NCBI RefSeq assembly: GCF_004010195.1
Contig: NC_057753.1
Location: 8,492,985-8,556,984, forward strand
Length of the DNA: 64,000 nt
Source of the DNA: Chiloscyllium plagiosum
Taxonomy: Eukaryota
Direction of reading: 5' to 3'
The translations under genes were made by a program, and so were the position numbers. The notes beneath the pieces were generated by a model. That model was not told the DNA's origin and did no database searches. It was given only the letters and a program-made list of their open reading frames with translations. Below are positions 14,050 to 62,292 of the stretch, piece by piece. How positions within the stretch are numbered: the first letter of the stretch is position 1; each line of letters begins with the position of its first letter.

Positions 14050-14945
14050 TTAAAGAAATAATCTTAGTGGATATTTCAGTCCATTTTTTAACTCCATTCT
14101 GAATTTGCTCTGGGTGCCAGCATAAATAAATGGGTTGATGCAGGAACTCAACAATTGAAGCATTAAACCAGTTTGCTGGAGAATAAACGTGGAATTGCTG
14201 ACATTGAAACCTGAAGAGTAAGTGACATTCCCAATTCGGACATAGAGCATGGTTACGAAAAATACCAAATATAGCAGGATGAAATTGACTGAGATGGCGA
14301 ATAGTAAAACAATTGACTTTTTTCGTTTTCTCATCTCTGGATCACTCTTATTCTCATCTCTGTTCTGGACCCGGACTCTCTTGCGCACTGTATTGGCAGC
14401 TACAATACCTCTAACCGTCAGAGCATTGAAAAGTAAAATCAGAACGAATGGAAGGGCGGGGTTTAACATGTACCGAATCCAGTCATACACAGTCCATGCA
14501 GATGACTGATAATATATTTCTTTAATGACGCAAAACCATGGTATGTTGTTAATTATATACCTGGGTTCAAATATAAAACATAAAAAGGCATTTTTTATGC
14601 AGACCAGTATGGTTATGATTCCTATAATCCATGCTGCCGTGCTCCGTTTACAATACCATATTTTTACTTTCTGTAAAGAAATAGCCACAAATCGATCAAA
14701 AGTAAAAGCGACCGTTAACCAGACAGAACTGTCAATTGCTGCATTGTTTAAAGCTGCTCGAACATTACAGACCGGTGTGATAGATAGGAAACTAGATGGG
14801 AAATAAATCCCAACAATCCGGTTTAATATTACAGCCGTGACAATAATCAGGAGATCTGTCACCGCCATGGATACGAGGTAATAACCGATACATCCAGACA
14901 GACCACATCTTCTTTGACTTAGGATGACAATTACTGCCAAATTCG
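14050..14945 (-). CDS. GPR139/GPR142-like class A GPCR, gene 1, exon 2 (TM1 C-terminal half to C-terminus)
   Basis: Open frame with 7TM motifs: ANLAVIVIL (TM1 Asn), LVSMAVTDL (TM2), C3.25, AFTFDRFVAI (DRY-like), ECL2 WFC, TM5 Pro, INPFIY (NPxxY) and helix-8 KFR. Preceded by a polypyrimidine tract and acceptor ctctctctttctctcgcag|CG (phase 1). Stop TAA at 14052-14050. Confidence 0.93.
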
Positions 14946-15299
14946 CTGCGAGAGAAAGAGAGAGACTCAGTTGGTGGCAGAGGACATAGGAAAAGAGAGA
15001 AAACAACAACAATGTTCATTACTGATTTGTTTTGCTTTAGAATCCGCAAGTTTATGCCTGAAGTTTACAGTCTTGCAATGTGATCTTCAGGTGAAAATTG
15101 TTACTTCTATGCAGAAAATTATTCAATGGTTTTAACATTATCCATTGAAATGCAGTGTCATAACATAATGGAATGATGCAAAGAGATGTCAAGGAGGGCA
15201 TAATAGAAAGAAAGAAGAAGCAAAGCCCTTAGAATTCCAGGGCAGAACATCCAACAACAGAAAACAAAAACACAAACAAATAATAACTTCAAGAATTTC

Positions 15300-16640
15300 A
15301 GTCATGGAGCCAATAGAGCTGTACAGCACGCCAATTGTCCATGCCGACCAGATGTCTTAAATTAATATCATTATATTTGTCAGCATTTGGTCCGTGCCCC
15401 TCTGAACCCTTCCTATTTATATACCCATCCTGATGCTTTTCCAGTGCTGCTCTTGCACCAGCTTAAGAGGTTGCCCCTTAAGACCCTTTCAAAGCTTTCT
15501 CACCTTAAACGTTCATACTCTAGATTTGGACTCCCTATCCAAGAAAAAGAAATACGTTGGCTGTTCAACCTATCCTTGCTCTTTATGCTTTTATAAACCT
15601 CAAGAAATGACATCATGCAGCTTTTAATACTGCAGGGAAAAATAAACACAACCTATTAAGCCTCTTCGTATAATTCAAACCGTCCAATTCTGAGAACAGT
15701 CTTGCCGATATTTTCTGCATCCTTTCAAGTTTAACAATATAATTCCTGTTGCAGGGTATACAAAATTGAATGCAGTATACCAAAAGTGGGCGAAACAATG
15801 TACTGTACAACTGCAACTGGACGTCTGGACACCTAAATACAATGCTCTGACCAATAAAACATACGAAGTGACTTCTTCACCACTTGTCAAGCTGTAGATC
15901 CACCTTCAGGGAACCATGAATCTGCATCACAAGATATCTTTGCTTGGCAAGACTACATACAGTTATATAATTCACTGAAAAAGTCCTGCCATGATTTGCC
16001 TGAACAAAATGATACACTGCACACTAATCGAAACCTGCCCCATCTTCCACTCTTCTGCCCATTGGTCCTTCAGACCAGGACCCTGTTGTAAACTGAGATA
16101 ACTTCCTTCACTGTCCATGACACCATCAATTTTGATGTCATCTGCAAACTGTGTAACCTTTTCTCCAATATTCACATCCAGGTCACTTTTATAAACGATA
16201 CAAATCACTGGACCAAACACCAATCCTTGCAGCACACCGTTGGCCATAGGCCGCAAGTCTGAAGAGCAACCCTCCCCCACTATTCTATGTCTCCTACCTT
16301 CAAGCCAATTTTCTATCCAAATGGCCAGCTCTCCCTGCATTCCAAATTATATAACTTTCTAACCAGTATAGCATCCAGAATTTTGTCATACGTCATAATG
16401 AGGTTTATACAGACAGCTTGCACCGCCATGCCCCAATCAGTGTTGTTAGTCATTTTCTCCAAAACTTGCTTGTGAGACACGATTTCTAAGGCACCAATGT
16501 TGAATATCCCTAATTGGGACTGGCTTTGCTGAATACATCCAAATCCTGTTCCCTCAGCATTCCCTCCAGAAACGTACCCACCACTGGCGTCAAGCTCACT
16601 AGCCTATAGTTCCCTGGCGCATGTGTTGCACCTATCTTAA
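15300..16640 (-). mobile_element. CR1 LINE fragment in GPCR gene 1 intron
   Basis: GELAIWIENWLEGRR, GVLQGLV, QFADD, QLYSTLFRPLLVYCIQF. Confidence 0.8.
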
Positions 16641-17509
16641 ATGCAAGCAAACATAAAACGAATCAAATAAAGTAACATACTAAATTGAACGGAGATGAAG
16701 TCTCACAGAAATCCAAAGTGGTTCATTTCACTTAAATTGCAAAATTCTTCAGTCTTGGAAAAATCTGAAAATAGTCTTCAAAACTGTCCTCAAGCAGAAT
16801 TATTTGGCTTGATAATTAACCACCATGACATTTGCAGAGGACTTTTTTTAGGTGGAATTCAGTGATAAGTTTGTTTTTATAACGAACAATAATTTGGAAT
16901 CTTCATGCAATCATCCCCGGAAAGTTGCAGATTAGGACGTTTTAATAGACAAAAAGAGCTTCCTAAAACATAATACTTCTTTTGTGCTGCAGAGCGGATT
17001 CTGGATAAATGACCAAATGTAATATAATCTGCACAATTTATAAAATGAACTGGTGAATTAAATGAGAACTGTAATTAAGAATTTGGGATTCAATCAATGT
17101 GAAGGTGTGAATAATGAAGGAAACAGCTCCAGCATTGCAGATGCCACTTGTAGAAATCCCACAACACCAGTAAACAACTTAGATTGTCTACTATTATAAT
17201 GGGTGTGTGGGCAAGCTCACATTCTTGTCTTCCATGGAGGACCTGGTATAAATATCAGCAAATTAAGTGTTACCACAATATGAATAATAAGTTCATCACA
17301 AAAACTATAATTTGAGTACCTGACACAATGATGATAAGAGTGCGGCAGAATACTGACCGATTGTGTCACTACAAAGCTGACCATTGGCATAAATGTTCCA
17401 TGAAAAAAAATCCTTGAAGTGGCCTTGCAGCCTGATATCACTAATCCCCATAAATCACTGACCGATTTTCAATTTTCCGTTTGATGTCTACCTCTCTTTG
17501 CTTTCTAAG

Positions 17510-19570
17510 TATTCAACTGAGAAATAAGAAAGGGATGATAACCTTATTGGGATTGTATTATACACCCCCTAATAGTCAGAGGGAAATTGCGAAACAAACT
17601 TGTAAGGAGATCTCAGCTATCTGTAAAAATAATAAGGTCGTTATGGTAGGGGATTTTAACTTTCCAAACATAGACTGGGACTGCCATAGTGTTACAGGTT
17701 TAGATGGAGAGGAATTTGTTAAGTGTGGACAAGACAATTTTCTGATTCAGTATGTGGATGTACCGACTAGAGAAGGTACAAAACTTGACCTACTCTTGGG
17801 AAATAAAACAGGGAAGGTGACTGAGTTGTCAGTGAGGGAGCACTTTGGGGCCAGCAAACATAATTCTATTAGACTTGAAATAGTGATGGAAATGGATGGA
17901 CCGGATCTAAAATTTGAAGTTCTAAATTGGAGAAATTAGACGGCATAAGGCAAGAACTTTCGACAATTGATTGGGGGAAGTAACAAAGAGGATTGATGAG
18001 GGCAGAGCAGTAGATGTGATGTATATGGACTTCAATAAGGCATTCGAAAAGGTTACCCATCGGAGGCTGAATAGCAAGGTTAGATCTCATGGAATTTCGG
18101 GAGAACTAGCCATTTGGATACAGAACAGGCTCAAAGGTAGAAGACAGAGAGTGGTGGGGGAGGGTTATTTTTCAGACTGGAGGACTGTGACCAGTGGAGT
18201 GCCATTTGTGTCATTTACATAAATGATTTGGATACGACCATAAAAGGTACAGTTAGTAATTTTGCAGATGACACCAACATTGGAGGTGTAGTGGACAGCG
18301 AAGCGGATTATCTCAGATTACAACAGGATCTTGAACAGATGGGCCAATGGGCTGAGAAGTGGCAGATGGAGTTTAAATCAGATAAATGTGAGGTGCTTCA
18401 TTTGGGAAAGCAAATCTTAGCAGTACTTATACACTTAATGGTAAGGTCCTAGGGAGTGTTGCTGAACAAAGAGACCTTGGAGTGCAGGTTAACAGCTCCT
18501 TGAAAGTGGAGTCGCAGGTCGATAGGATAGTGAAGAAGGTGTTTCGTATGCTTTCTTTTATTGGTCAGAGTATTGAGTACACGAGTTGGGAGGTCATGTT
18601 GCAGCTGTACAGGACATTGGTTAGGCCACTGTTGGGATTTTGCGTGCAATTCTGGTCTCCTTCCTATCAGAAAGGTGATGTGAAACTTGAAAGGGTTCAG
18701 AAAAGATTTACAAGGATGTTGCCATGGTTGGAGGATTTGAGCTATAGGAAGAGGTTGAATAGGCTGGGGCTGCTTTCCTTGATCGTCGGAGGCTGAGGGG
18801 TGACCTTATAGAGTTTTACAAAATTATGAGGGGCATAGGCAGAGTAAATAGGCAAAGTCTTTTCCCCGGAGTCGGGGAGTCCAGAGCTAGATGGCATAGG
18901 TTTAGGGTGACAGAGGTAAGATATAAAAGAGACCTAAGGGGCAACGTTTTATCACAGAGGGTGGTACGTGTATGGAATGAGCTGCCAGATGGTAAGTTCC
19001 TAGGGAGTGTTGCTGAACAAAGAGACCTTGGAGTGCAGGTTAACAGCTCCTTGAAAGTGGAGTCGCAGGTCGATAGAATAGTGAAGAAGGTGTTTCGTCT
19101 GCTTTCTTTTATTGGTCAGAGTATTGAGTACACGAGTTGTGAGGTCATGTTGCAGCTGTACAGGACATTGGTTAGGCCACTGTTGGGATATTGCGTGCAA
19201 TTCTGGTCTCCTTCCTATCAGAAAGGTGATGTGAAACTTGAAAGGGTTCAGAAAAGATTTACAAGGATGTTGCCATGGTTGCAGGATTTGAGCTATAGGA
19301 AGAGGTTGAACAGGCTGGGGCTGCTTTCCTTGAGCGTCGGAGGCTGAGGGGTGACCTTATAGAGTTTTACAAAATTATGAGGGGCATGGGCAGAGTAAAT
19401 AGGCAAAGTCTTTTCCCCGGAGTCGGGGAGTCCAGAGCTAGATGGCATAGGTTTAGGGTGACAGAGGTAAGATATAAAAGAGACCTAAGGGGCAACGTTT
19501 TATCACAGAGGGTGGTACGTGTATGGAATGAGCTGCCAGAGGACGTGGTGGAGCCTGGTACAATTGCAAC
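17510..19570 (+). mobile_element. CR1 LINE (EN fragment fused to RT 3' part; internal deletion and internal tandem duplication)
   Basis: EN: GLYYTPPNS, VMVGDFNFPNIDW, LDLLLGN. RT: VDVMYMDFNKAFEKV, NFADDT, RPLLGYCVQFWSP. The EN-RT linker is missing at ~17965. Confidence 0.88.
18438..19539 (+). repeat. 551-bp direct tandem duplication (2 copies, about 98% identical) inside CR1
   Basis: Units 18438-18988 and 18989-19539. ORF pairs 18449/19000 and 18826/19377 are offset by exactly 551. About 9 substitutions seen. Confidence 0.9.
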
Positions 19571-20029
19571 AAGATTCTTGTAGGTGCTGATATCCATTCA
19601 TATCTTGAATTCCAAGATATGACCAAATTATTCATTAATACATTATACTAAATCATTCTCTTACTTCTGAAAAATATTAACTTGCTTTCTCATTGAAAAC
19701 CAAAATAGAAAACGCTTTCAGCGCGATGGTGCACTCCAGGTGATAGTGTTTACAAATAAAGAACCTGTAAAAGGCATGAGATAACTTCTGTCACGACAAA
19801 CATTCTAAACGTGACGGGAATAATTTGCTATTATGATGTGAAAGTACTGTATTAGAAGCTGTTAACTAACCAAAACAGCTAATAGTGAGTCGTTAAACAA
19901 GACCAAAAAATTGTGAATGCGTAAAGTAAGTTAAGTATTCATATATCAAATGAATACTAGTAATGAAGAAAATATGTGAAGGTAGAGACAGGTATAATTT
20001 GACAGGTGGTGGCAAAGAAATTGAGCAAT

Positions 20030-22940
20030 AATTCGAACATAGATCATTACAGCGCAGTACAGGCCCCTTGGTCCTCGCTGTTGTGTTGACCTTTGAAATC
20101 AATCTGAAGCCTATCGATCATACACTATTCCATTTTCGTCTACATGTTTATCCAATGACCATTTAAATGCCCTTAAAGTTCGCGAGTCTATTGCAGTTGC
20201 AGGCAGGGCGTTCTACTCCCCTACTTCTCTCATTGTAAAGAAAGAACGTTTGACATTTGTCGTAAATCTTTCTCCCCTCAATTTAAAGTCGTGTGCCCTC
20301 GTGTGAGCCATCAACATCCGAGAGAAAAAGGCTCTCACTGTCCACCCAACCTTATCCTCTGATTGTCCTTTATGTCGCAATTAAGTCAACTTTCAACTTT
20401 CTTTATAACGAAAACAGTCTCAAGTTCCTCATAAGATTTTAATTCCATATCAAGCAACATCCTAGTAAATCTCCTCTGAACTCTTCCAAAGCTTCCAAAT
20501 CCTTCCTTTAACGTGGTGACCAGAACTGTACGCAACATTCCATGTGTGGCCGCACCTGAGTTTTGTACAGCTGCAACGTGTCCTCATTGCTCCGAAACTC
20601 AATCCTTTAGCAATAAAAGCGAATGCATCCTGTGCCGTCTTAAAAAACCCTAACAATCTGGGTGGCAACTTTCAAGGATATATGTACATGGACATGGAGA
20701 TCTCTCTACACTGCCAAGAATCTTACCATTAGCCCAGTACACCTTACTCCTCTTGCTCCTTCCAAAGTGAATCAAATCGCATTTTTCAGCATTGATCTAC
20801 ATTAGCCACCTCTTCGCCCAGCTCTGCAGCTTCTCTAGTTCCCTCAGTAACAAAACATTCTTCAGAACTGCCACAACTCCACTGGCCTTAGTGCCATTCG
20901 CACATTTACTAACCCGTCTGACACGCCCTTATCCAAGTCAATTATAAAAATGATAAACAGCAGCAACCCCAAAACAAATTCTTGTGGTATACGACCAGTA
21001 ACTGAACTCCAGGATGAATATGTCCCATCAACCATCACCCTCTGTCTTCTCACAGCGATCCAATTTCGGAACCAAACTACTAAATCCCCCTAGTACTTTC
21101 TGCATTAGCCGACCTTGAGGAACCTTATCAATCGTTTTATTGCAATCCATATACACCACATCAACTGCTATACCCTAATCCACCTGTCCGGTCACCTTCT
21201 CAAAGAACTAAATAAGGTATGTGAGGCACTAACTGCCCTTTATGAAGCCGAGTCGACTATTCATAATCAACTTATTCCTCTCGAGATGATTATAATTACT
21301 ATTCTTCTCATTTTTTCCAACACTTTACCCACAACCGAAGTAAGGCTCACTGATTTATAATTACCAGGGTTTTCTCGACTCCCCTTCTTGAACAAGGGGA
21401 CAAGATTTGCTACCTTTCAGTTTTCTGGCACTGTTCTTGTAGACAATAATGATGTAATGATCAAAGACAAAGTGTCTGCAGTCACCCCTTGGCTTCCCAG
21501 AGAACCCTAGGATAAATCCTGTCCGGCTCAGAGTCTTACCTATTGTCAGACTTTCCAAACTTGCTAACACCTCCTCCTTGTGAACCTTAATCCTGTCTAA
21601 TCTATTAACCGTAATCTCAATATTCTCGTCGACAACATCATGCTTTTCCAATGTTAAAGCTAGTGGAAAATATTCCTTTAGTGCGTCTCCTCTCTCCTCG
21701 GACTCTACGCACAACTTCTCACTACTGTTCTTCAATGGACCAAATCTTATTCATGTCATTTTTTTTCCTGATATACCTATAGAAAGCTTTAGGGTTTTCC
21801 TTGACTCTATCTGCCAACAGCTGCTCATGTTCCCTCTCGGCTCTTCTTAAATCTCACTTTAAGTCTTTCCTGGCTAACTTGTAGCTCTGAAGTGCCTAAC
21901 TGGGCCTTCACATCTCATCCTTACATACCCTTTTTTTTCCGGCTCGACAAGAAATTTAATTTCTTTATTAAACCACGGCTTCCTCACTCGACCACTTCAT
22001 CCCTGCCTGACAGGTCCATCCTTCCCAAGGACACACGGTCGGTGTTCCCTGAATGTGCTACACATTTCAATTGTACCCATCCCATGCAGTTTCTTCCCCA
22101 TCCTATGGATCCTAAATCTTGCCTAATCGCATCATACTTGCCTTTTCCCCAGCGATAACTCTTTCCATGCGGCATCTAACTACCCCTTTCCATCGCTAAA
22201 GTAAACAGAATCGAAACATATTCTCTATCACCAAGGTGCTCACCTACATTCAAATCTAACACCTGGTCGAGTTCATTACCCCGTCCAAATCGACTGTAGC
22301 CTCGCCTTTGTTGACTAGTCTGCATATTGTGTCAGGAAACCATCCTGCGCACATTTGACAAATGCTGACCCATCTAACGTGCCCGAACAATAGCATTTTC
22401 AGTCAATATTTGTAAAGTTAAAGACCCCTTCAGAAGTATCCTGTACCTCTCGCTCTGTTCCAGAATCATCTTTGCAATCCTTTCCTCTACATTGTTGGAA
22501 CTTTTCGGATGCCTATAGAAACCTCCAACAGGGTGACCTTTCCATTCCTTTTTCTAATCTCAGCCCATATTATCTCAGTAGACGAGTTCTCAATTGCCCT
22601 TTCTGACACCGTGAAACAGTCCTTGGCGAACAATGCCAACCCTCCTCATCTTTTACCATTTTCATTCTTACATGTAAATCCCAAATCCTGCAACAACCAG
22701 TCCTGTCTCTGCTCTATCAATGTTTCCTAAATAGGCACAACATCCAAGTCCCAGGTACCAAACCATGCTGAAAGTTCATCCGATTATTCCAGATGCTCCT
22801 GGCGTTGAAGTAGACACACCTTCCGGCTTGCCAGTGCACGCTTGCGACCTTGAAACCTTCTGTTTGACCTCAGTACGCTCAACCTTTTGGACACTGGAAC
22901 TACAATTTAGGTTCCCATTCCCCTGCTGAATTCGTTTTAG
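20030..22940 (-). mobile_element. CR1 LINE, long decayed copy (EN to 3' tail) in GPCR gene 1 intron
   Basis: RRQRVMVDG..SSW.SVT, EN-region remnants near 22300-22750, and a CR1 tail (gaacatagatcattacagcgc) at ~20035. Confidence 0.8.
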
Positions 22941-22971
22941 AAATGGAAGTGGACAAAATATAATACGGTGC

Positions 22972-22997
<26 letters not shown>
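22972..22997. repeat. (TA)n microsatellite just inside intron 1 of GPCR gene 1
   Basis: Direct reading. Confidence 0.9.
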
Positions 22998-23005
<8 letters not shown>

Positions 23006-23075
23006 TAAACTACAGATAAAATATCAGCACTGGTAGAATTGACCATTGACTCGCAGCTGTTAACTAACTGCTTAC

Positions 23076-23145
23076 CTGGAAGCCCGATAGCTGCAAGGAC
23101 AGGATAATAAATGGCAAACAGCAGACCGTTTGGTACCCCATGCAT
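23076..23145 (-). CDS. GPR139-like GPCR gene 1, exon 1 (MHGVPNGLLFAIYYPVLAAIGLP+G)
   Basis: ATG at 23145, 70 nt, ends CCAG|GTAAGC (strong donor). Phase 1 matches the acceptor at 14946/14945, giving ...GLP-A-NLAV..., like GPR139 VYY..LCLGLPAN. Spliced CDS is 966 nt = 321 aa + stop. Confidence 0.88.
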
Positions 23146-24047
23146 TTTTAACAAACATTCGAAATAAATTTCACAATTTCCTAAAAAAACATCCACATAT
23201 TAATCTGATGGCAGCCTCCAGGGAGACAATTCTCTGCTTGATCATTCCTTTTTATTTAATTTACTGTAATTAGCGGATTGCTTATGCTCCACTGAATTTG
23301 ATGCTTCCATGGAATAGTATACTTTTCAAAGAATCGAATAAGGCTTTAAAATGTTATACCCTGATTCTTTAGATGTTGGTGTCTGGACAAAACTGAGGTG
23401 CTCGCAAGTGAATGCACTATAAAAAAAATCTGACTTTTGCAAAGAGCAGGACGTCAATCTGTCTGTCGTGTTCATTCTTTCCTTTCTGAACAAACGTGTT
23501 ACTTAGCTCTCTGAGACAGTACATGCGGTATAACGCAACCATGTATAGTTTCATTCAGGACATATCCCAGAAAGGTCAGACACAGCTGCACACACTTACT
23601 CATATCATTCCCTTTATTTTCATTGTGGTCAGATCAAGTAACTCATCAACACCACGAAATAAAATACAAAAATAAACACAAGATCTATCTGGCCAGGTTT
23701 CTGCCTTGGATATGACTTCTTCGCTGTTATCATCAGCTGGGATCAGAGCATTGGTTTACAATTCTCGCAAAGTCTGCATGGTGGCAAATGTCAAATAAAG
23801 TTAATATTAGATGTAGAGTTCTCGATTTACACGAATAACCGTGTTGCCTTTAAACTTATCATCACTAATCATCTGAAGTTCAATCTCACTTCCCAGCGAG
23901 ATCAGTTCGGCATTTGAGAATTTGCAATCACCGTGAGATTGTCAGAGGTTTCACAGTAAAGGCAATTTTAAACACGAGGTTTCTGATCATTACATCTTCT
24001 AGTTTTCCCACTCTGGAAATGGTTCACATCAGATTAAATCCTGTAGG

Positions 24048-24365
24048 TGGGCGGCACGGTGGCACAGTGGTCAGCACTGCTGCCTCACAGCGCCAGAGAC
24101 CCGGGTTCAATTCCCGCCTCAGGCGACTGACTGTGTGGAGTTTGCACGTTCTCCCCGTGTCTGCGTGGGTTTCCTTCGGGTGCTCCGGTTTCCTCCCACG
24201 GTCCAAAGATGTGCAGGTCGGGTGAATTGGCCATGCTAAATTGCCCATCGTGTTAGATAAGGGGTAAATGTAGGGGTATGGGTGGGTTACGCTTCGGCGG
24301 GTCGGTGTGGACTTGTTGGACCGAAGGGCCTGTTTCCACGCTGTAATGTAATGCAATGTAAATGT
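24048..24365 (+). mobile_element. HE1-type tRNA-derived SINE
   Basis: A box TGGCACAGTGG, B box GGTTCAATTCC, central GTGTGGAGTTTGCACGTTCTCCCCGTG, CR1-like 3' end and a (TGTAA)n tail. Confidence 0.88.
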
Positions 24366-24439
24366 AAGACACAGCTCTGATGTAGCTGGAATTTCTTTTT
24401 TCTGCAGGTAGCACGTTTCCAATCTTACAATTGGAATGT

Positions 24440-25255
24440 TAGGGGACTTGGATAAGCTACAGAATTGGGCTGAGAGGTGGCAAATGGAGTTCATGCAGAT
24501 AAATGTGAGGTGATTCACTTTGCGAAGAATAACAGGAAGGCAGAATACTAGGTCAATGAAAAGATCCTTAGTAGTGTGGATGTGCAGAGGGATCTTGGTT
24601 TCTATGTACATATATCCCTGAAAGTTGCCACCCAGATTGATAGGATTGTTAAGACAGCATGTAGTGTCTTTGCTTTTATTGTTAGAGGGATTGAGCTTCT
24701 GAGCAATGAGGTTATGTCACAGATGTACAAAACTCAGGTGCGGTCACACATGGAATATTGTGTACAGTTCTGGTCACCGCGTTATAGGAAGGATGTGGAA
24801 GCTTTGGAAGAGTTCAGAGGATGTTGCTTGATATGGAGGAAAGGTCTTATCAGGAAAGGCTGGGGGACATGGGTCTGTTCTCATTCGAGAGAGGAAGGCT
24901 AAGAGAGGATTTAATAGAGATATACAAGATGATCAGGGGATTAAATAGGGTGGAACTGAGAGGTTTTTTTCTTAGGAAGATGATGTTGGCTTGTACGAGG
25001 GGGCATACGTGCAAATTGAGGGGTGATAGATTTACGATGTCAGAGGAAAATTCTTTACTCAGAGCGTGGAATGCCCAGCCTGCCAATATAATTAACTCAG
25101 CCACATTAGGGGCATTTTGACAGTCGTTAGATAAGTATATGTATGATGATGGGATAGCGAAGGGGGATGGGCTTAAATTAATTCGCAGATCGGTGTAACA
25201 TCGAGGGCCGAATGGCCTGCTCTGAACTGCATTTTTCTATGTTCTGTATTCTATG
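24440..25255 (+). mobile_element. CR1 LINE 3' fragment
   Basis: SLKVATQIDRIVK, MEYCVQFWSP, RLREDLIEIYKMIRG and a ttctatgttct tail. Confidence 0.82.
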
Positions 25256-25554
25256 CTGCTTGCTAAGGCACCGATGGCAGTGGATTACACACTTGTTTTT
25301 GTCAACAAAAGGCTGATGGCTGACTACCTGGCCTTCACACGTGTGACAAAGTGACTGGAAAATTAAGACAATTGGCAGTCGACCGTTTGTTGATTCTTTC
25401 ATTAAACGTTTCAAAAGGTGGATCGGGAATCTTTGGCTCCCTTCAAGATATACGGTGACTTTTGAAAAGTGTTTTATAATGACTTGTATTTTACCTCAAA
25501 TGTTCGTGAAAATTAAATGAGATTTCGTCTGATTGAGAGAGATCGAGTATCGAA

Positions 25555-41421: not shown

Positions 41422-41449
41422 CCACAACAAGGAGGTCCAAAGATTGACA

Positions 41450-42780
41450 AACGACTGAGAGACACAATTCCTTCACATTTCGCTGTTTAGTTGGCACCGT
41501 TTCATTGTAAGGCTGGTCTTGAACTCTCCCATGAGGGGAACTATCCTTTCCAGCATTTACTCGGGTAAACACCTTAATAATTCGATATGTTTGAATGAGA
41601 TCACATCTGATTCTTCTAACCTCCAATGAGTAGAGTTCCACTGTGTTTAACCTTCGATCGGATGACAATCTCTTTATCGCACCAAAAGAGAAAATGCTGG
41701 AAAATCTCAGCAGGTCTGGCAGCATCTGTAAGGAGAGAAAAGAGCTCAAAGGGTCAGTTAGACTCGAAACGTCAGCTCTTTTCTCTCCTTACAGATACTG
41801 CCAGACCTTCTGAGATTTTCCAGCATTTTCTCTTTTGGTTTCTGATTCCAGCATCCGCAGTAATTTGCTTTTATCTCTTTATAGCACGGGTCATCTTCAT
41901 GAACCTTCTCTGAACTGCCTGCAACGAATTGATCTCTTTCCTCAAATAATATGAACCAAGTTGCTCACCCTGCTGAAGATATCGTCTCGCCTGCAACTTG
42001 TCCAGTTAACAGTAGACTCCACTACTCTTATCCATGAATCCCCTTGAAATAAGCGCCAACATTTCGTTCACCTTCCTGATTACCTGCTGTAGCGTTGTGC
42101 TAGCTTTCCATATTCCATGCACAAGCACCTGCAAGTCTTTTTGTGTTGCAGCCTTGTCATTTTCCTCAATTTAATGAACACACTCTTATTTTGTTCTCCC
42201 TTCCTAAAGACAATTTCAAAATTTCGCATGTTATCATCCACTTTCCAAATTTTGCTCACTAACTGAACTGATCGATATCTCTCTTAAACTAATTATATGA
42301 AAATTGTGTTTATTTTTTCCACCGATTTATGTGTAACCTGCAAAATTGGATATAGTGGTTTAATTTCATTCCTCCAAGAGGTTAATACATTTTGCAAACA
42401 GTTGTTTTTGTAGCACTGATTCCTGTGGTTGCGAAACTGAAAAAGAACTGCTCACTCCCATTTATTGTTTCCTGGTTATTCTCTTTCATGAAAAAATATG
42501 ATTCTTCTTGAAGTGATTATGATTTTCCAAACATGCTGCTATCTGTTCTTTACTAATTGGTTCAACACTTTGCCAACAATAGACGTTACGCTCACCAAAC
42601 CAGTTACATGACTTTTGCTTCCTTCCCATATTCTTTGAAAGGTTCACATTTTCCGTTTTCTAATGCTTGGGCACTTTTCCAGGGCCAAAGGATTTTGGGA
42701 AAAAGAAATGCAACGAATTCTAGGATATCCTTTGAAAGATTCTGTCACAATATCCATCACCAGATTCTCAAGCACATTGA
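41450..42780 (-). mobile_element. Old CR1-group LINE fragment
   Basis: LYSLEVRRIRCDLIQTYRIIK in ORF 41366-41749; heavily decayed. Confidence 0.55.
41683..41872. mobile_element. PLE-derived hairpin insert with a partial hammerhead and a 15-bp TSD
   Basis: Arms ~41683-41746 and ~41772-41838 are near-perfect reverse complements. The loop holds gggtc-agtta-gactc-GAAACGTC without the CTGA core. TSD atctctttatcgcac (41668-41682) / atctctttatagcac (41873-41887). Confidence 0.72.
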
Positions 42781-43981: not shown

Positions 43982-43994
43982 AGACTTTTCGGAG

Positions 43995-45240: not shown

Positions 45241-45305
45241 AATTCACTTTTAGTCAGATTTATCATCACGCTTGCATTTGGAAATCAGTTGAACAAGTGT
45301 GATAC

Positions 45306-51673: not shown

Positions 51674-51975
51674 GGGGCGGCACGGTGGCACAGTGGTTCG
51701 CACTGCTGCCTCATCAGCGCCAGAGATGTGGGTTCAATTCCCGTCTCAGGCAACTATCTGTGTGGAGTTTGCACATTCGCCCCGTGTCTGCGTGGGTTTC
51801 CTCCTACAGTCCAAAGATGTCCAAGTTAGGTGAATTGTCCATGCTAAATAGCTCGTAGTATTAGGTAAAGGGGTAAATGTAGGGGAATGGATCTGGGTGG
51901 GTTGCTCTTCGGAGGGTTGTTGTGGACTTGTTGGGCTGTTGGGCCTGTTTCCACACTGTAAGTAATCTATTCTAA
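51674..51975 (+). mobile_element. HE1-type SINE between INT and RT
   Basis: GGGGCGGCACGGTGGCACAGTGG start, B box and tail. Confidence 0.85.
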
Positions 51976-52655
51976 TGTCTCAAATCAAATTGGACACTAA
52001 AGAAGTTGGCAAAAAATGGGATTCGTCATCGTGTTACCTTCCACAAGAACATCGAAATTACTGTCACATGGGCAGATATTGGAAATAAGCCGAGAAGTAC
52101 TAACCGCGTTGTGGATGATGTAGATACAACAGATGGTGTCCCGATTAAGCAACATCCTTATCGGCATGATCCTCTAAAGTTGGTGCAATTTCAGAAGGAC
52201 ATAGAGCGCATGCTACATGACGGCATAATCAAAGTGAGTTACAGTGACTGGAGCTCATCCATAGTCATGACACCAAAACCAGATGGTACCCAAATGTTAT
52301 GTGTGGGCTAACTCAAAGTCAACGCCATGACAGAGATTAATGTTATACAATTCGCGGTTGGAGGACTGTGTCGAAGATGTGGATAAGCAACTTATATTTC
52401 TAATTTGGAGTTTCTCAAAGGCAACTGGCAGATACCTCTGTCAGACAGAGCAAAAACAATCTTGGCTTTCGTAATGCCAAATGGACTATATCGGTTTACA
52501 ATCATGCCATTTGGTATGAAAAACGGTCCAGCTACCTTTCAGACTGACGAATAAGTTCATTGCTGGGTTACCTAACTGTATTGTTTGCATTGATGAACTG
52601 ATGATCTTTCGTCACTCATGAAAGAAGAAATTACAGCATTTATCTGACTTACCGA

Positions 52656-52770
52656 AATTTGTAGATCAGGTTGAGGTTCTGGGATTCGCTATGCTCGCTG
52701 AGCTGGAGGCTGATTTTCAGACGTTTCGTCATCATACTAAGTAACAGCTTCAGTGAGCATCCGGACGAAG
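52656..52770 (-). mobile_element. PLE terminal fragment with degenerate hammerhead
   Basis: Minus strand ca-CTGAAGC-tgttac...gac-GAAACGTC-tg. Confidence 0.55.
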
Positions 52771-53307
52771 TTAGATGGATATGAGCCAAATGCTGGAACG
52801 TGGGTCTAGATTAATTTAGGACATCTGCTCGACAGGGGCTCTTTGGACAGCAGGGTCTGTGTCTGTGCTGTATACTTGTATGACTCAATATCTCAACAGG
52901 CTCTGGGCTTTATATACAGTGATGCCCGCAAAGCATCGCGCATGCGCTCCTTGACATTCCTCATGTGTTCTAGAACCTTAGCAATCGGACTGAAATCTCA
53001 ATTGCAAAGTCATTCTCTACTGTGAATACAAATGAAATGTGTTACTGAACGTCCGCCGGCTCTACGTGCCTCTGCCCCTTTTGATTCTAAATTGCGTCCC
53101 GGTTTTCCTGGCAATAATCTTATTGTAAATACACGAATAAAATGCTTTCAAGACTTCCATTGATAAATTGTGCTGAAGATATTTTGTGGTCACTCGTCCT
53201 CCTAATTAATATTTTAAATACCCACAGAGCACTCTCTGTGCCTTTAAAGGACCTCCCTTGTTTTTATTACAATCGACATAATCTCTGCATTTTTTTGCCT
53301 TTTCAAA

Positions 53308-53625
53308 GGGGCGGCACGGTAGCACAGGAGCGGCACGGTGGCACAGTGGTTAGCACTACTGCCTCACAGTTCAATTCCTGGCTCAGGCAGCTGACTGTGT
53401 GGAGTTTGCACGTTCTCCCCGTGTCTGCGTGGGTTTCCTCCGCATGCTCCGGTTTCTTCCCACAGTCCAAAAATGTGCAGGTTAGGCGAATTGGCCATGC
53501 TAAATTGCCCCTAGTGTTAGGTCAAGGGGTAAATGTAGGGGAGTGGGTCTGAGTGGGTGGCGGGTTGGTGTGGACTTGTTGGGCTGAAGGGCCTGTTTCC
53601 ACACTGTAAGTAATCTGAATCAAAC
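53308..53625 (+). mobile_element. HE1-type SINE with duplicated 5' end
   Basis: ggggcggcacggtagcacag-gagcggcacggtggcacagtgg, then the standard body. Confidence 0.85.
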
Positions 53626-53950
53626 TCTAGATATCCCTGAACATCCGGGTTTTGCTGCCCTTGCCCTTCACCGTTTTAGGGACAAATCAACAGTTTTCAT
53701 GGTCACCCTTAGGGCGCTTGTAAATTCGTATACAATTCTTAGATAATTTAATGAGCTCGATGCCCAAATTTTGTGTTTTTGTGGGCTTGTTTCATTCTAT
53801 TTATCTACTTGAAATTTATTGAGGGAGAGCTTCGAAGTTGGAAATTAAATCACATGTCACATCAGAATCTGATATTGACACACAATGTGTTCTAACTTAA
53901 ATATCGTCGATTTTGAACATGAACAATAAAAGCAACAATTATATTGTGAA

Positions 53951-53952
<2 letters not shown>

Positions 53953-54012
<60 letters not shown>
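53953..54012. repeat. (AT)30 microsatellite
   Basis: Direct reading. Confidence 0.95.
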
Positions 54013-54014
<2 letters not shown>

Positions 54015-54019
54015 TATGT

Positions 54020-55140
54020 TTGAGCCAGGATTTAGAAAAATCACCTGACCTCTTGGCACATAAATGCATTCACACTGGCATGAAATCATGGGAATGTGGA
54101 CACTGTGAGAATTACTTCAAATCCCCATCTGAGGTGGAAAGACATTAGCGCAGTCACATTGGGGAAAGTCCATTTTCCTGTTCCAAATGCGGGAAAGCCT
54201 TAAGTCAGATATCCCATCTTCTGTAACACCAGCGACTTCACAGTAGGTGGAACGTTTTTAAATATTCAGACATTAGGAGATACTTACACCTTCCAAGGAA
54301 CTGACGTCCAATCAATGTGTTCCCACTGACCAAAGAACATTCAAATATTCTCACGGAAGGAGTGGGTTCAGATACTCCTCTCAACTCATATTACTCCAGC
54401 GACTTTAGGCTGAGGAGAGACCATTCATCTGCACCGATTGTGTTAAGGGATTCACTTGATTATCCAATGCACTGACACACAAGCGAGTTCACATTCTGGA
54501 GGCTTTTTTTAAATGGTGCGATTGTAGTAATTGCTGTGAAGGTTTCAGTGACTTGATGTCTCATCAATTTGCTTACACTAAGGAGCAAACGGGCAGTTGC
54601 TTCAGTCACACATCCCGACTTACACCAGCGGATTCATAATGGGGAAACAAAAATATTCACCCGCTTTGAGTCTGGGAAATGATTCAGTCAGTTACGATAT
54701 TTGTTGAGAGACCAGCGAATTCACACTGCGGATAGACCATTGTCCTGCTCACAGTGTGACAGGAGATTCATTGTTTCTCCACTTTGCTGAGACTCCAGCA
54801 AGTCCACGCTGCCGGAAGTCCAATCATCTGCTATGGGTGTGTGAATTGATTCATTTTGTTATCCTACCTGCTAATGGACCAGCGAGTACTCACTGAAGAG
54901 AGATCTTTCAAACACCCAGACTATGGGAAGTGCTGTAAAAATTCCTGGGAAGTGATGAGCCATCAACGTATTCACTCTGGCTAGTGACCATTCAGGTCAT
55001 CTCACTTGTGGACTGTGTTCAAGTGAACTTCTCAACTCAGTGTCCACCAGAGATTTTATTCACCTGCTCTAACTGTGGGTAAAACATTGCTCACTCATCC
55101 AAACTGCTGCAACAACAAGTTCCAAGTTCACAACTGCTTG
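54020..55140 (+). pseudogene. Decayed Kruppel-type C2H2 zinc-finger array
   Basis: HKCIHTGMKSWECGHCENYFKSPSEVERH*RSHIGESPFSCSKCGKALSQISHLL*HQRLH..., plus further TEERPF/HTADRP/HQRIHSG linkers. Multiple stops and frameshifts. Confidence 0.8.
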
Positions 55141-55779
55141 GATTTTATTGTTAATGACTTCCAGAAGTGAACTAACTTTATTGGGTCTGTTTCTGCAGAT
55201 TTTAGCAAACAAGGCTGTTTTAATGGTTGGATGTGATTGTTTGTTCTTTGTTGCACAACAAAGTGGCTGTATGGATAATTTTAGTCGGCAGTTCGAGTGT
55301 CCCGCATTATTTTGGTTCTGGAATCGCATGTAGACCAGACCAGGAAATGATGGCCGAATACTTTCCTTCAAGAACATTGATGAACTAGATCAGTTGTTCA
55401 ACAAGAAATGGTAGTTTTATAGCATGGCCAATAGATTATAGATTTGTTGAATAGAATCTAAACTCCATCAAATGCTGTGATCTTGTATCACCTGAGCATT
55501 AACATCTGGATCACTCGCCCAGCGACATTCTCACTAGACAGCAATCTCCTGCGAAACTCCAGGTCAATTCTACATGCTAAATTGCCAAATAAAATGCGAA
55601 TCAATCAGCTTTGTGTAAAATTGTACAACGGCTTTTTCTAAAATTCTGATATTTTGGGCCTTGGAGATTCTGCCTCTTTCCCCTGCATTCTCCACCCTCA
55701 CATCAATCAGCAAGTGTGAGAAGGTCACGGAGCCTCTTTGTCACCGCGATTGAGACACCTCCCACCACTCAGTAACGCT

Positions 55780-56165
55780 GCACCAGTGTATTCACCGCCT
55801 TTCCACTCCTTCTATTCGCTCTCACTGTGGGAGAAGTTCAGGTGATTGTTAAACATTCAGCAACAACAGCAAGCTCACCCGGGGACAGGTCAGTCAACTT
55901 TGTCTTGTGTGTGAATGAATTCATTAATTCATTAGAAGTGCTCGCACATTCCTAGATTCACATTCAGTGTCTACCAGCGCACTTACACTGAGGAGAAACC
56001 TTTCAGTAGCTTCTATTATAGGAGTAAATTCAGTCAGTCAATCATTCCCACATCAACACACAACAACGTGTTCACACTAAAAATAATCTTTTTCAAAGTT
56101 CTTCATACGGGCAGAGACTTTGAAGCAAAATGTATCTGCTGAAACACAAACCCATTCACACTAGT
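55780..56165 (+). pseudogene. Further, more decayed C2H2 zinc-finger remnants
   Basis: YQRTYTEEKPFS, QQRVHT and HKPIHT linker remnants. Confidence 0.55.
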
Positions 56166-57065
56166 ACAACCACTTAATTTCTCTCTGGAACGGTCTGTTT
56201 CCACACTGTAGGGATTCTGTTCTATTCTATTAGAATTCCCTGCTTAATTGGTGCGTGTGGGCTATACACCAGAATGCGTGAATCGTCACATCCTGGAACA
56301 TCCATGAGGGTGTGAACCTGACAGTCAATCTGTGATCACTCCTGCAGTGAGCATTGACACTGACCCTTCTGAATGTTGTAGGCTCATAGAGTGTACTCTG
56401 AAGAATCTGGGTTCATTATCCTGTCTGATACATGGTGAAGAATTGGAGAAATCCGTAGAAACTGTTGGGAGTGTTATTTGTCAGTATCCTTCTAGTGGTG
56501 AAAAATAGGAAATGTTTCTTCCTCTCAGTGCCACTCACAGTTTTGCCCATTTCAATCATATATCTCTCAGTCTTCTCTGTTCCAAAGAAAGCAACCGCAG
56601 TCGGTCAAAACTGTCTTCACAACCAAATGGTTAGTCAAATTCTGGTAGATCCCTGCAGCCTCATCAGTCTCATATCTCTAATAATATCTCTGCTCTAATG
56701 TGGAATACACGATACTATTCTCATTTTAGCTGAAGGAATTGTTCATACATTTAAAGCATAATCTCCCTGCATTTAATCATTCAAGAGAGTGATATGGCAG
56801 AGCTGAGTATGGTGACCATCACCAAGGAGAAGATGCTAAAAATGAATTGCCTGAACACAGATAAATGACCTGGAAACGATGGACTACACCCTAGAGGTAT
56901 AAGGGAGATCACAGAAGAGGTAGAGGAGGCGGAAGTGATGATGTGCCAGTATTCGCTGGAATATGGGAGGTTCCAGAGTACTGGAAATCGCTAAATTGAC
57001 ACCCTATTTTTAAAGGGAGTAATGGAAAAAACGGAGAATTACAGACCGATTAGCAAAATCTCAGC

Positions 57066-57361
57066 ACCGCCTTCTTGACCTGCAATCTTCTTCCCGACCT
57101 CTCCGCCCCCACCCCCTCTCCGGCCTATCACCCTCATCTTGACCTCCTTCCACCTATCGCATTCCCAACGCCACTTCCCCAAGTCCCTCCTCCCTACCTT
57201 TTATCTTAGCCTGCTTGGCACACCCTCCTCATTCCTGAAGAAGGGCTTATGCCCGAAACGTCGATTCCCCTTCTCCTTTGATGCTGCCTGACCAGCTGCG
57301 CTTTTCCAGCAACACATTTTTAAGCTCTGATCCCCAGCATCTGCAGTCCTCACTTTCTCCT
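57066..57361 (+). mobile_element. PLE terminal-repeat insert (C-rich segment plus hammerhead)
   Basis: Same family as the 11777 right arm, ending cagtcctcactttctcc. Confidence 0.72.
57231..57267 (+). ncRNA. Intact minimal type-I hammerhead ribozyme motif
   Basis: attc-CTGAAGA-A-GGGC-TTAT-GCCC-GAA-AC-GT-C-gatt: full core, perfect 4-bp stem II, GUC cleavage triplet (predicted cut after 57262). Confidence 0.75.
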
Positions 57362-58357
57362 GCTAGCATGAATGACTTGGCTGACTGGCAGAAAGGAGAG
57401 AGTGGGGATAAAATGGTCTTTCTCAGGATGGCAGCCGCTGACAAGTCCACAAGGTTCAGTGTTGCGACGACAACTTTTCACTTTACACATTAATGACCAA
57501 CATGATTGGTCATTCCAGCTACGTTTGCAGGTGATACAACGATAGGTCAAAAGTCACGTAGCATTTAGAAAGTGGAGAGGTTTCAGATTTGTACCGGTTA
57601 GGAGAATGGGCAAAGAAGTGGCAGATGAAGCACCACGTGGGAAATGTGAGATCATGCATTTTGATAGGAAGAATTGAGGCATGGTTTATTTTCTAAATCA
57701 GAAAAAACCAGAAGTCTGAAATGCAAAGCTACTGAGAGGTATATTCCCGATTTCTCTCAAGCTAAACTTGCAGGCTGATTCAGTGATTCGGAAAGCAAAT
57801 GCAATACTGGCATTTATTTTGAGAGGACTTGAATATAAAAGCAGAGATGTACTTCTGAGGCTCTACAAGGCTCTAGTCATACCTCACTTCCAGTATTGCG
57901 CGCAGCTTTGCATCCGATATCTCAGGAAAGATGTATTGACCCTGGGGTGTGTTCAGAGGTGGTTCATGAGAATGGTCCCAAGCTGAAAAGCTGAACATAT
58001 GAGAATTGTTTGAGGACTGAGTTTATACTCGTGGAGTTCAGAAGGTTGCAGGGGCATGTAACTGAAGAATAGAGAATACTGAATGTCCTGAAAAGCGGAG
58101 ATATGGTGAAGATGTTTCCATTGTTGGGAGAGATTAAGATCCGATGGCATAGCCTTAAAATAAAGGGTCGGTCTTTTAGAATGAAGATGAGGAGATAGGT
58201 CTTCAGCCAGACAGTGGTGAATCTATGGAATTCACTATCACAGAAGATTGTGGAGGCCAGCTCATTGAATACATGTAAGACAGAGACGGATAAGTTTTTG
58301 TGTATGAAGAGGATGAGTGGTTACCGGGAGGAAGCGTGAAAATGGGCTGAGAAACTT

Positions 58358-59560
58358 ATAGAACATAAAGTCTAGAATATAACAGCGCAGTACAAGCCCT
58401 TCTGTCCTCGATGTTGCGCCAACCTGTGAAACCAATCTGAAGACCATGTAACCTCCACTATTCCATTGTCTTTCATTTGTTTATCCAATGGAAATGGAAA
58501 TGTGTTCAAAGTTTGCGAGTCTACTACTACTGCAGGTAGGGTATACCACGCCCTGACTACTCACTGAGTAACGAACCAACATTTAACGTATGTCCTGTAT
58601 CTACCACCCGTCAAATCAAAGCTATGTCTCCTCCTGCTAGCCATCATCTTTCGAGGAAAAAGGCTCTCGCCGTCCACCCTATCTAATCCTCTGATCATCT
58701 TGCATGTTTCGATTAACTCCCCTTTTAACTTTCTCTCGAACGAAATCAGCCACGGATCCCTCAGACTTTCCTCATAAGACCTTGCCACCAAACCAAGCAA
58801 CATCCTGTAAAATCTCCCACTCACCCTTTCTAATGCTTCCACATCTTCTCTATGATGTGGTGACCAGAACTGTACACAATACTCCAAGAGCGGATGCAAC
58901 AGTGTTTTGTATAGCTGCAACATGACCTCGTGATTTCAACACTCAATTCCTCTACCAATAGAACCGAAAACACCGTACACCTTCTTAACCACCCTATCAA
59001 TCTGAATGGGGAATTTCGGGGATTGATTCACATGGACACTAAGATCCTCTGCTCATCCATGCTACTACGAATCTTACCATTAGTCCAGTACTGTGCATTC
59101 CTGTTACTCCTTCCAAAGTGAATAATCTCCCATCATTTCACATTAAACTCAATTTGTCACCTCTCAGCACAGTTCTGCAGCTATGCTATGTCTCTCTGTG
59201 ACCTGCAAAAGCCTTCCACACTTTACACAGTTCTTGTGACTTTCTGGCATCCGCAACTTTACTAACCCATCCTTTTACGCCCTCATCCAGGTCATTTACA
59301 AAAAAAAGACAAACATCAGTGCACCAAAATGAAGCCTTCCGATATGCCAATAGTAACTAAACTCCAGGATGAATGTTTCCCATCAACCACCTGTCTTCTT
59401 TCAGCTCGACAATATCTGGTCCAATCTGTGAAATAACCCTAAATCCCACTCCTCCGTATTTTATGCAATGGCCTACCATACGCCTGATTGAAATCCGTAT
59501 GCACCATATATACTGCTTAACGCTCATCCACCTGGTTAGTGACCTCCTCAAAGAATAATT
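58358..59560 (-). mobile_element. CR1 LINE 3' fragment
   Basis: LYKTLLHPLLEYCVQFWSPH, KGELIETCKMIRG, tail atagaacata at ~58358. Confidence 0.82.
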
Positions 59561-61381
59561 GAAGGTTGAATGTTCTGACGCCTTAGTTACATTTTGGTAA
59601 CTAGAAAAGAAAATCAGCTTCAGCACTACCTTGCTGTTCTGCGTCTTCGCTTAATTTTCATTCTCTAATGTTCAAAGCAACTGATCTCCCACCTCCCTAT
59701 ACTATCTCAGGAACCTAAGTTATAATTCAAAGATGTATCCATAATCATAGCTACGTTTTTACCCAAGGCTCTGCAAGACATGGATAAAACCAATCCCATT
59801 GGAACTGCTTATATCTTTCGCTGTTGTAGTGCCAATGCCCGCTAAATTCAAACCCATTTCTCTCACAAATATTTGAACTACATATTCACCTAAAAAATCT
59901 TGTTGACCCTGGTACGACGACGTAACTTCCAGTTCCGGACAATGGCTGAGTGGTAAAACACATTCGAGTTTCTCTTGACTCAAACTGATTGGGGTATTTG
60001 GTCTTTGATTCGTTTTCTCTTGAACATTAGCAATCATACGTTCTTAAACTTTGTCACGTGCAGCTGTAATATGTGAGAAAACAATGAGTATCTCAATACT
60101 TGCGAAGAAGAAAGAAATGTTCCAGAGTCTAGCGGGAATACATTAGCGTCTGTAAATATGCAAATGTAAGATTGACGCAGAAATCTGCTGATTTTACAGC
60201 AATAAGACAGAAAATAACGAATTAATTTAGCACCACCATAATTCATCAGTTTACAACGATACAGTAACCCGTTTTCAAGGAAGCTGCCACTTTCTGCGAG
60301 ACGGAAAATCACAAAGTGGGTAAATAAAGATATGTCTTGGCCCTAAAACTAGAATTTAGAATTCACTGTTCTGGGCAAGAATATATAGAAGTTGGTGGCA
60401 ATGGCGACTTCAGAGTGGTGACCTGGAGAAAGGACCTCTGAAGTAATGGACGCTCTCATTTTTGAAAGGTTTTATTTCCGATGGAACAGTGAAAAATCGT
60501 GAAGATAGCAATATAGCAGAAGGCAGGAAAAGAGCTATGCACAAAACTTTTGTCATCTCCTGACAGGTATTTCACTACACATGATTTTGTTCAAGACACA
60601 TATTGTACTTTCGCGCTGCCTGTAGGCGATTACCTCGATATATAAAACTGATGCATACAGATGATGCAGATATGATTCGTCATGTGCTTTTCTCACATAC
60701 CTGGTTACCGTATTGAAAGAGAATAAGTCTTCGAAGAGAAATGCCATATGAAGTTCAGCCCTATTGTTAGATTCAGTTTATGAAGTGTGTTTTTTTTTAC
60801 GCCCAGTCGGACGAAATCATGTTGGTGGCTACAGAACTGACATTTGTTATCTCTTTGTTCAGGTTGTGTTCTATCCCCATCACAACTAACTTCAGGCTGA
60901 TGACCTAACTCTGAACAAACAAGTTGAATAAAAGATGTTCAAGTTAGAACTCCTGACGTGAGAATGCCTCGATCAGTTTCAAAAGGCTTTGTACTGCCAT
61001 GTATGCTTTGTGGATAAATCCCCAATCTAAGCATACAGTCATCATTCTCAATTGATGAAAAATGAGAAAGCCAGTGTTGAACGCATGCAGGAAGCTTGTG
61101 TTCTGCTTACTAATAAACCAAATGCGGACTCAGTGGCTGCTCAGCATTAATTCTGATATTCTGACACCCTCATGACAGATAGAAATTCACTGGATCTGAC
61201 AGCATATTACAATATCAGAACGATTTGCAACATCAATTTTTATATTAATGCTATTTTTTCAGTCGCACTCTTAGTAAGTTTCCAAAATATATGCAGCTTT
61301 CAATGAAAGTCAGACTTAATACGGGCAATTTGAAGAACCTTTTCTAAAATCATGCAGAATACAGATAATATTTGTATCTTT

Positions 61382-62292
61382 TCAACATTTACATAATTTA
61401 CCAAACAAATTAAGTGGATATCTCAATCCATTCTTAAATTCATCTCGGATTTTACCCTGTGTCACGGCATAAATAAATGGATTGATGCAGGAACTCAGTA
61501 ACTGAAGCATATATCCACTTTCCTGAAGAAATGATATTGAATCAGTTACACTGGAACCCGAAGAGTAAGTCACACTTCTGACTCGAACGTAGAAGATAGT
61601 TACAAAATATAGCAAATATGACAGAATGAAACTGCCTGAGATACCAAAGAGTAACACAATGGACTTTCGCCGCTTCTCAACCTCTGGATCATTTTGGTTC
61701 TCTTCAGCACTCTGGGATCGAAATCTCTTGCGGACTCGATTGGCTGCTAGAATGTGTCTGACAGTCAGAACATTGAGCAATAAAATTAAAATGAAGGGAA
61801 AACAAGGAGTTAAAATGGATCGCATCCAATCAAATACAATCCACGCGGGTGATGCATAGAACATTAATTTATGGACACAGAACCAAGGTGTGTCATTCAG
61901 TATGTACAAAGGTTCGAATACAAAATACCAGAAGGCATTCTTTATACAGCTCAGTGTGCAAACACTTCCAATAATCCAGCCTGCTGTCTTCTCTGTACAG
62001 TATTTTATTTTCAGCTTCTGGCAACAAATCGCCACAAATCGATCAAAGGTGAAAGCGACCGTCAACCAAGCAGAACTGTCTATGGCTTCATAAATTAATG
62101 CAACACGAAGACTGCATACTGGTGTGATGGACAGAAAACTCAATGGGAAGAAAATTCCAGCAATGCGACTTAATATCACAGCCGTGATAATGACCTGGAG
62201 ATCTGTCACTGCCATGGACACCAGATAATATGTGATACATTTAGAGAGCCCGCATGTTTTTCGAGACAATATCAGTATTACCGCCAAGTTTG
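61382..62292 (-). CDS. GPR139/GPR142-like class A GPCR, gene 2, large 3' exon (exon 1 presumably beyond the window end)
   Basis: Uninterrupted frame ANLAVILILS...DRFVAICC...INPFIY...KLCKC*. Acceptor ttttttttcgattgcag|CA lies at the same codon and phase as in gene 1. Ungapped alignment to gene 1 gives about 199/298 identical residues (manual count). Confidence 0.93.

Follow-up and report, generated by a model that had tools for sequence, protein, structure and literature searches.

Sequence analysis of a 64,000 nt stretch of the bamboo shark Chiloscyllium plagiosum genome (NC_057753.1; hereafter the window, with positions counted from its start) revealed two intact seven-transmembrane (7TM) receptor genes, A and B, which almost certainly belong to a large family of class A G protein-coupled receptors (GPCRs) that is not orthologous to GPR139 or GPR142 and that has diversified binding pockets. 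The existence in cartilaginous fishes of a chemoreceptor-style repertoire built from a GPR139-like clade is real; the function that we favour for it, at a probability of roughly 45%, is that A and B are members of a GPCR repertoire that detects outside chemicals in chemosensory cells.

Both genes lie on the minus strand as stop-free frames (15015-14050 for A and 62326-61382 for B) that match Pfam 7tm_1 above the cut-off, with E values of 4.9e-19 and 1.8e-20, respectively. A profile made from the first-exon peptides of 77 relatives and run over the window scored 73.4 at 23145-23076, compared with -5.0 for the next best site. This first exon of gene A is directly followed by a GT donor, and in-frame stops lie upstream of its ATG. 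The splice to the large exon is predicted from sequence; gene A is complete within the window, its two coding exons giving a protein of 321 residues. The same profile found nothing further in the window that could be the first exon of gene B, which is expected beyond the window end. The AG acceptors of the two genes occupy the same codon position (phase 1, in the Ala codon that precedes the N1.50 motif), and a pyrimidine tract precedes each large-exon start (14945 in A, 62292 in B). An AlphaFold model of gene A (mean predicted local distance difference test score 86.6) features six full helices, a partial first transmembrane helix (TM1), a hairpin in the second extracellular loop (ECL2) and helix 8. 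An earlier note on this DNA had described two intact 7TM genes on the same strand with a shared acceptor position and an ungapped alignment at about 67% identity, all of which is borne out by the frames, the Pfam matches, the phase-1 AG and 200 identical residues of 299 (66.9%). Its description of the layout as nearly single-exon has to be replaced by two coding exons, whereas the short N-terminus stands; as GPR139 is also reported to have two exons (PMC7318219), which gene A shares, the layout does not serve as a sign of a chemoreceptor.

Over 297 codons, A and B differ with dS 1.05 and dN 0.22, and their dN/dS of 0.21 (bootstrap 0.15-0.30) was accompanied by neutral substitution simulations at half of this dS in which the frame stayed open in 0 of 2000 cases. 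A and B are old duplicates under purifying selection, which had earlier been read from the intact frames and is now measured. No similarity was found between the flanks of A and those of B, and tblastn detected no third copy or fragment in the window (next E 0.22). A dN/dS of 0.21 at dS ~1 argues against copy-number drift in repeat-rich regions, in which the copies would be weakly expressed, would respond to a common endogenous peptide or to no ligand at all, and would be under relaxed binding constraint; we consider this improbable.

A protein search from B returned 3583 candidates, 2097 of them at E<=0.001. The best 120 of these 2097 matches, for which names were obtained, all come from sharks, are 54-73% identical to B and are mostly auto-named 'probable G-protein coupled receptor 139'. 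The horn shark Heterodontus francisci contributes 73 of the 120, spread over five contigs with 52, 9, 8, 2 and 2 members; the 52 share one 59.5-Mb contig, clustering here meaning a shared contig and not positions inside contigs. These 73 already exceed the 65 chemoreceptor genes that have been reported for the catshark (PMC6368271). An exhaustive search of 50%-identity representatives yielded 119 clusters at E<=1e-30, and the 20 representatives that were looked up comprise 15 from sharks, rays or skates (one via a cluster member), one from the chimaera Callorhinchus milii, one from lamprey and three without a species. A FastTree phylogeny places the chimaera protein within the radiation, which indicates that the expansion predates the elasmobranch-holocephalan split. 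For C. plagiosum itself, 610 contigs of a DNA-like sequencing run match the gene A region (435 of them under 90% alike), and 82-83 distinct contigs were obtained at the TM3 motif, versus one or two at the flanks. This shows that the genome holds many paralogs, with the proviso that contig numbers are not a copy count; nor is the summed depth at the TM3 motif, which exceeds that of the flanks more than thousandfold in one run, a copy number. Another run, the RNA nature of which is a guess, contained 17 contigs under 90% alike to gene A, and seven of the eight listed lie on the TM3 motif. The earlier proposal that cartilaginous fish carry many clustered members of an expanded family, as opposed to 1:1 orthologs, is upheld by the 2097 matches and the 52 horn-shark members on one contig; one or two copies that group as true orthologs is not what the searches returned. 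N-termini or lengths are unusual in many of the database gene models, the standard 23-residue first exon being present in 82 of the 120 best relatives, which is a point in favour of drift.

A profile of the family compared with solved structures matched human GPR139 best (E 4.1e-28, 101.6 bits; neurotensin receptor 1 reached 85.7 bits). GPR139 was also the nearest characterised receptor for the profile of a sister gene from amphibians (E 2.6e-13). Foldseek gave template modelling scores of ~0.7 to peptide receptors, with GPR139 at rank 10 and all hits near E 1e-8, and so does not separate the peptide receptors. The profile match and the database labels are the grounds on which A and B could be taken for shark GPR139 and GPR142. 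We regard this identification as hardly tenable at all: it fails on identity and on pocket residues, since true GPR139 orthologs are reported to be 70% identical between human and zebrafish (PMC7318219), whereas B as a single sequence reaches E 3.6e-4 with human GPR139, the match being confined to residues 2-155, and the structural alignment of the model with GPR139 has 20% identity. Hundreds of closer shark paralogs also stand against it.

Phylogenies were inferred with a mixture model (47 rows) and with FastTree (224 rows), canonical GPR139 and GPR142 being in neither. In the mixture-model tree, a chondrichthyan clade of 32 rows is sister to a GPR139-like gene of amphibians and sturgeon, its closest relative beyond cartilaginous fish, with support of 100/98, and the group formed by the two stands apart from further GPR139-like lines that coelacanth, teleosts, lamprey and amphioxus possess. 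FastTree recovers the same shape, with a warning of long branches that meet at the amphibian/sturgeon join, which the mixture model retains. Both trees place A and B in one shark subfamily but do not resolve them as sisters. Deep subfamilies are common to sharks, rays and a chimaera, and their retention across these groups is difficult to reconcile with drift. It also counts against a role in reproduction (sperm, gonad or egg-gland signalling, or species recognition), because such subfamilies are common to several orders; species-specific blooms, such as the horn-shark clade, and invertebrate relatives of the clade that are reported to include sex-peptide/MIP receptors (PMC8514136) would fit that role, which we nevertheless judge very improbable.

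The amphibian gene is represented by a single cluster for each species named among 20 amphibian rows, occurs once in sturgeon and is apparently missing from amniotes in these searches, which detect only proteins sharing short words. A search that started from the amphioxus relative found ten proteins, nine of them amphioxus-like and none a canonical GPR139. The amphibian/sturgeon gene (P0231, P0300-P0319; for example XP_069092602.1) shares a motif in the third intracellular loop with the chondrichthyan family and differs from it in its single cluster per species and in a frozen pocket in which F3.33, W6.48 and N7.39 are retained along with a basic residue at 6.51 (K6.51), and thus three of the four residues of the Trp/Phe site of GPR139. 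Its positions 1.50, 2.50 and 6.47 are occupied by S, N and H, respectively, and it is a candidate receptor for aromatic amino acids or peptides.

Sixteen pocket positions were mapped onto the family by counting from helix anchors in its alignment with GPR139, at ~20% identity. Two of them correspond to E105 and D268 of GPR139, which we take to be inward-facing neighbours of the pocket. The other 14 are reported ligand contacts (PMC8807744, PMC5430874). Variability was compared between the 73 horn-shark paralogs (mean identity 76%) and 20 amphibian orthologs (77%). In the paralogs, mean entropy is 1.39 bits at the pocket positions, versus 0.60 bits at 169 other helix positions, 0.79 bits at 56 other positions of the extracellular half (permutation p 0.0008 for the pocket excess) and 0.39 bits at 69 positions of the intracellular half, which confirms the variable pocket described in the earlier note. 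The amphibian orthologs have 0.09 bits in the pocket, 0.33 bits in the rest of the extracellular half and 0.42 bits in the intracellular half. Signatures of nine pocket sites likewise number 65 in the 73 paralogs and just one in the 20 orthologs. This contrast suggests that an ancestral receptor for a fixed ligand was turned into a repertoire in which many different pockets are combined with a single signalling face, and the pattern is the signature of a ligand-diversified sensor repertoire. A and B themselves differ at 8 of the 16 pocket positions and at 13 of the 69 intracellular positions.

D2.50, DR, the ECL2 cysteine and NP are invariant in all 73 horn-shark paralogs while the pocket exceeds its extracellular neighbours in variability, a combination that is not expected from drift. 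A and B both carry N1.50, D2.50, DR (as DRF), the disulfide between C3.25 and ECL2, P5.50 and NPxxY. Both lack W6.48 (Y instead) and P6.50 (V or L), which amounts to a changed TM6 switch and is compatible with drift. The Trp/Phe site of GPR139 is described as F109, H187, W241 and N271 (PMC5430874), together with R244 (PMC8807744). The equivalents of the first four are N/R/Y/L in A and Y/R/Y/Y in B, so that neither keeps any of them, and the basic residue at 6.51 (R244) is lost, with F in A and Y in B. None of the 120 best relatives keeps all four. Amino-acid sensing of the GPR139 type, as had been suggested earlier, is therefore unsupported for A and B.

A mechanism is proposed where one GPR139-like gene gave rise to a birth-and-death repertoire of class A GPCRs in cartilaginous fishes and stayed single-copy in amphibians and sturgeon. 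The receptors, 321-328 residues long, would have almost no N-terminal domain and an ECL2 hairpin tied by a disulfide to TM3. Each would bind its ligand between the helices and then activate a shared G protein, the same one most likely serving every copy because the intracellular face is the same, while pocket residues in TM3, TM5, TM6, TM7 and ECL2 that vary from copy to copy would confer different ligand tuning. Gene structure, selection, family size, ancestry and pocket diversification are demonstrated by the results above; the G protein, the ligand class and the tissue are what we infer here. GPR139 is reported to signal mainly via Gq/11 (PMC8807744), which makes calcium signalling of the Gq type, by descent from the GPR139 clade, the default expectation. 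The ligands would probably be small peptides or amino-acid derivatives, and the site may be the nose, taste buds or solitary chemosensory cells of the skin or gills.

The same ligand-diversified repertoire could instead serve immunity or barrier defence, in granulocytes, mast-like cells, epithelia of gut, gill and skin, or the sensory nerves of these, and detect microbial or damage peptides much as the formyl-peptide receptors or MRGPRs of mammals do, which we consider possible although unlikely. The structural and pocket evidence fits this equally well, and receptor genes lie among zinc-finger arrays both in the window and in the whale shark (P0071). Transcripts from a different subfamily occur in one single-cell library: in a sample of ~2% of this run, 13 reads fell on gene A, all of them partial paralog matches that, judged by eye, would come from a P0138-like subfamily. 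Counting against an immune role, the N-termini are neither acidic nor glycosylated, in contrast to those of chemokine receptors, and the N-glycosylation sequon occurs in 0 of the 82 first-exon peptides. No 'GPR139' or 'receptor 139' entry was found in the four files that accompany an atlas of shark immune cells (PMC11372145) or in 12 of the 19 files of a thymus study (PMC12286861); both absences weigh weakly against an immune role, as names may differ.

Several observations weigh against a sensory repertoire in chemosensory cells, or against the strength with which the pocket data argue for it. Immune and barrier receptors such as FPR and MRGPR likewise form clusters with diversified pockets. 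In the 47 rows from species other than the horn shark, the pocket stands out less (1.38 versus 1.02 bits, p 0.036). Entropy in a protein alignment is no substitute for codon-based tests of positive selection, similarity to B was the basis on which the 120 rows were picked, and the pocket positions were transferred from GPR139 at the low identity given above. The ~2% sample of the single-cell run held no gene A reads at least 95% alike, an absence that drift would also account for. Among the 50 most specific genes of a catshark brain-plus-olfactory library, as given in the available portion of the paper, there is no GPCR, which counts only weakly since V2Rs were missed as well; the same source reports that known catshark genes of the OR family are expressed outside the nose too (PMC11979771).

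GPR139 and GPR142 are class A receptors activated by Trp/Phe and by peptides, and the chondrichthyan family resembles them in a TM1 motif, a W-x-T-V run in TM3 and the short N-terminus. In contrast, A and B pair a cysteine at 3.25 with the ECL2 cysteine whereas GPR139 has no cysteine at 3.25, and GPR139 is single-copy and brain-expressed whereas the chondrichthyan family runs to hundreds of copies. With the OR, TAAR, V1R/ORA, T2R and V2R repertoires the family has in common its clusters, many paralogs, a variable pocket over a conserved intracellular face and a short N-terminus, but its origin is separate. None of 98 aligned members matches the Pfam families of OR, V1R or TAS2R at E<=0.001, a threshold at which 7tm_1 is found in 98 of 98, a weak Srx match in six and Srw in none. 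A single-sequence match to OR52c (E 4.8e-6) was gone from the best 60 once the family profile was used, and membership in the OR family is rejected.

Srw, a nematode chemoreceptor family, appears among the Atlas neighbours of the receptor clade in 17-74% of members. The Srw chemoreceptors of nematodes and other protostomes are reported to derive from peptide-type rhodopsin receptors (PMC3963977), and are thus an expansion from the same broad stock, a relationship that speaks for the sensory reading; the chondrichthyan expansion is independent and vertebrate. Going further than a sensory repertoire, the family may tentatively be seen as a seventh, independent vertebrate chemoreceptor family, with hundreds of genes that arose from a GPR139-like peptide receptor, outnumber the known OR, TAAR, ORA, V2R and taste receptors together, and are sparsely expressed in olfactory or skin sensory neurons. 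If true, this would explain how sharks combine keen chemical senses with the very small repertoire known for them so far.

No description of the expansion was found in the literature searched, which mostly excluded subscription journals. GPR139 entries were also absent from 12 of the 24 supplementary files of PMC8455134 and from eight files of PMC13188829. The terms 'cartilaginous' and 'paralog' are absent from the accessible text of a 2025 review of GPR139 (PMC12208981), as is 'GPR1' from that of the catshark sensory paper (PMC11979771). Cartilaginous fishes have been described as poor in GPCRs (PMC8455134). The genes are already in databases under a misleading automatic GPR139 label, and the published low counts come from searches that start with known families, a large pocket-diverse family being hidden by the label. 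'Probable GPR139' in fact spans several distinct vertebrate orphan genes. Two more GPR139-like lines carry it, one from coelacanth and teleosts and one from anchovy and lamprey (P0229, P0241, P0259, P0261/P0299). In Table 1 of PMC5207463, 'Orphan 139-like' and 'NMOGPR' appear as non-mammalian orphans with members 'Unclear', and no species or expansion is named in that table; these groups may correspond to the relatives detected here in coelacanth, teleosts and lamprey. If the chondrichthyan family is sensory, it constitutes a new class of vertebrate chemoreceptors, and what sharks smell with becomes directly testable; if it serves immune or barrier cells, it would be the shark counterpart of peptide-sensing innate receptors. 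The frozen single-copy amphibian ortholog offers a clean handle on the ancestral ligand.

Table 1. Positions of genes A and B and of associated features in the 64,000 nt window.
Feature	Positions	Strand	Remarks
Gene A, coding exon 1	23076..23145	-	70 nt; ATG, 23-residue N-terminus with first half of TM1, and first base of Ala codon
Gene A, intron (predicted)	14946..23075	-	8130 nt; GT-AG, phase 1; contains LINE-like debris
Gene A, coding exon 2	14050..14945	-	896 nt including TAA; from the second half of TM1 through helix 8
Gene A, candidate polyadenylation signal AATAAA	14045..14050	-	overlaps the stop codon; motif only
Gene A, second candidate polyadenylation signal ATTAAA	13762		motif only
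Gene B, coding exon 2	61382..62292	-	intact; 911 nt including stop
Gene B, intron, 3' part	62293..64000	-	AG acceptor 62294-62293
Decayed C2H2 zinc-finger array	54080..55100	+	between A and B, part of neither; finger matches 54095-54157, 54179-54241 and 54430-54492

In-frame stops interrupt all three zinc-finger matches (Table 1), in agreement with the earlier reading of this array as degenerate. A gene model of the whale shark Rhincodon typus (P0071) fuses a receptor of the family to C2H2 fingers; this is probably a mis-join, but it reveals the same alternation of receptor genes and zinc-finger arrays that is seen in the window. All other stop-to-stop frames of the window are at most 297 residues long and, read from their translations, appear to be debris of long interspersed nuclear elements (LINEs) and long terminal repeat elements. 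Upstream of the gene A ATG, a TATAA lies at a distance of ~210 nt (23358-23354, minus strand), and a T-run with AG at ~36 nt (~23182, minus strand) could be the acceptor of an intron in the 5' untranslated region. A 26-bp satellite array is absent upstream of 23145, none of 35 rows of arrays having that period. The intron of gene A contains a recent head-to-tail duplication of 552 bp (18438-19540, 98% alike) of a LINE-like piece. Self-inverted stretches with arms 79-90% alike, at 1-200, 5497-5868, 11777-11950 and 41681-41839, are probably short DNA-transposon-like elements.

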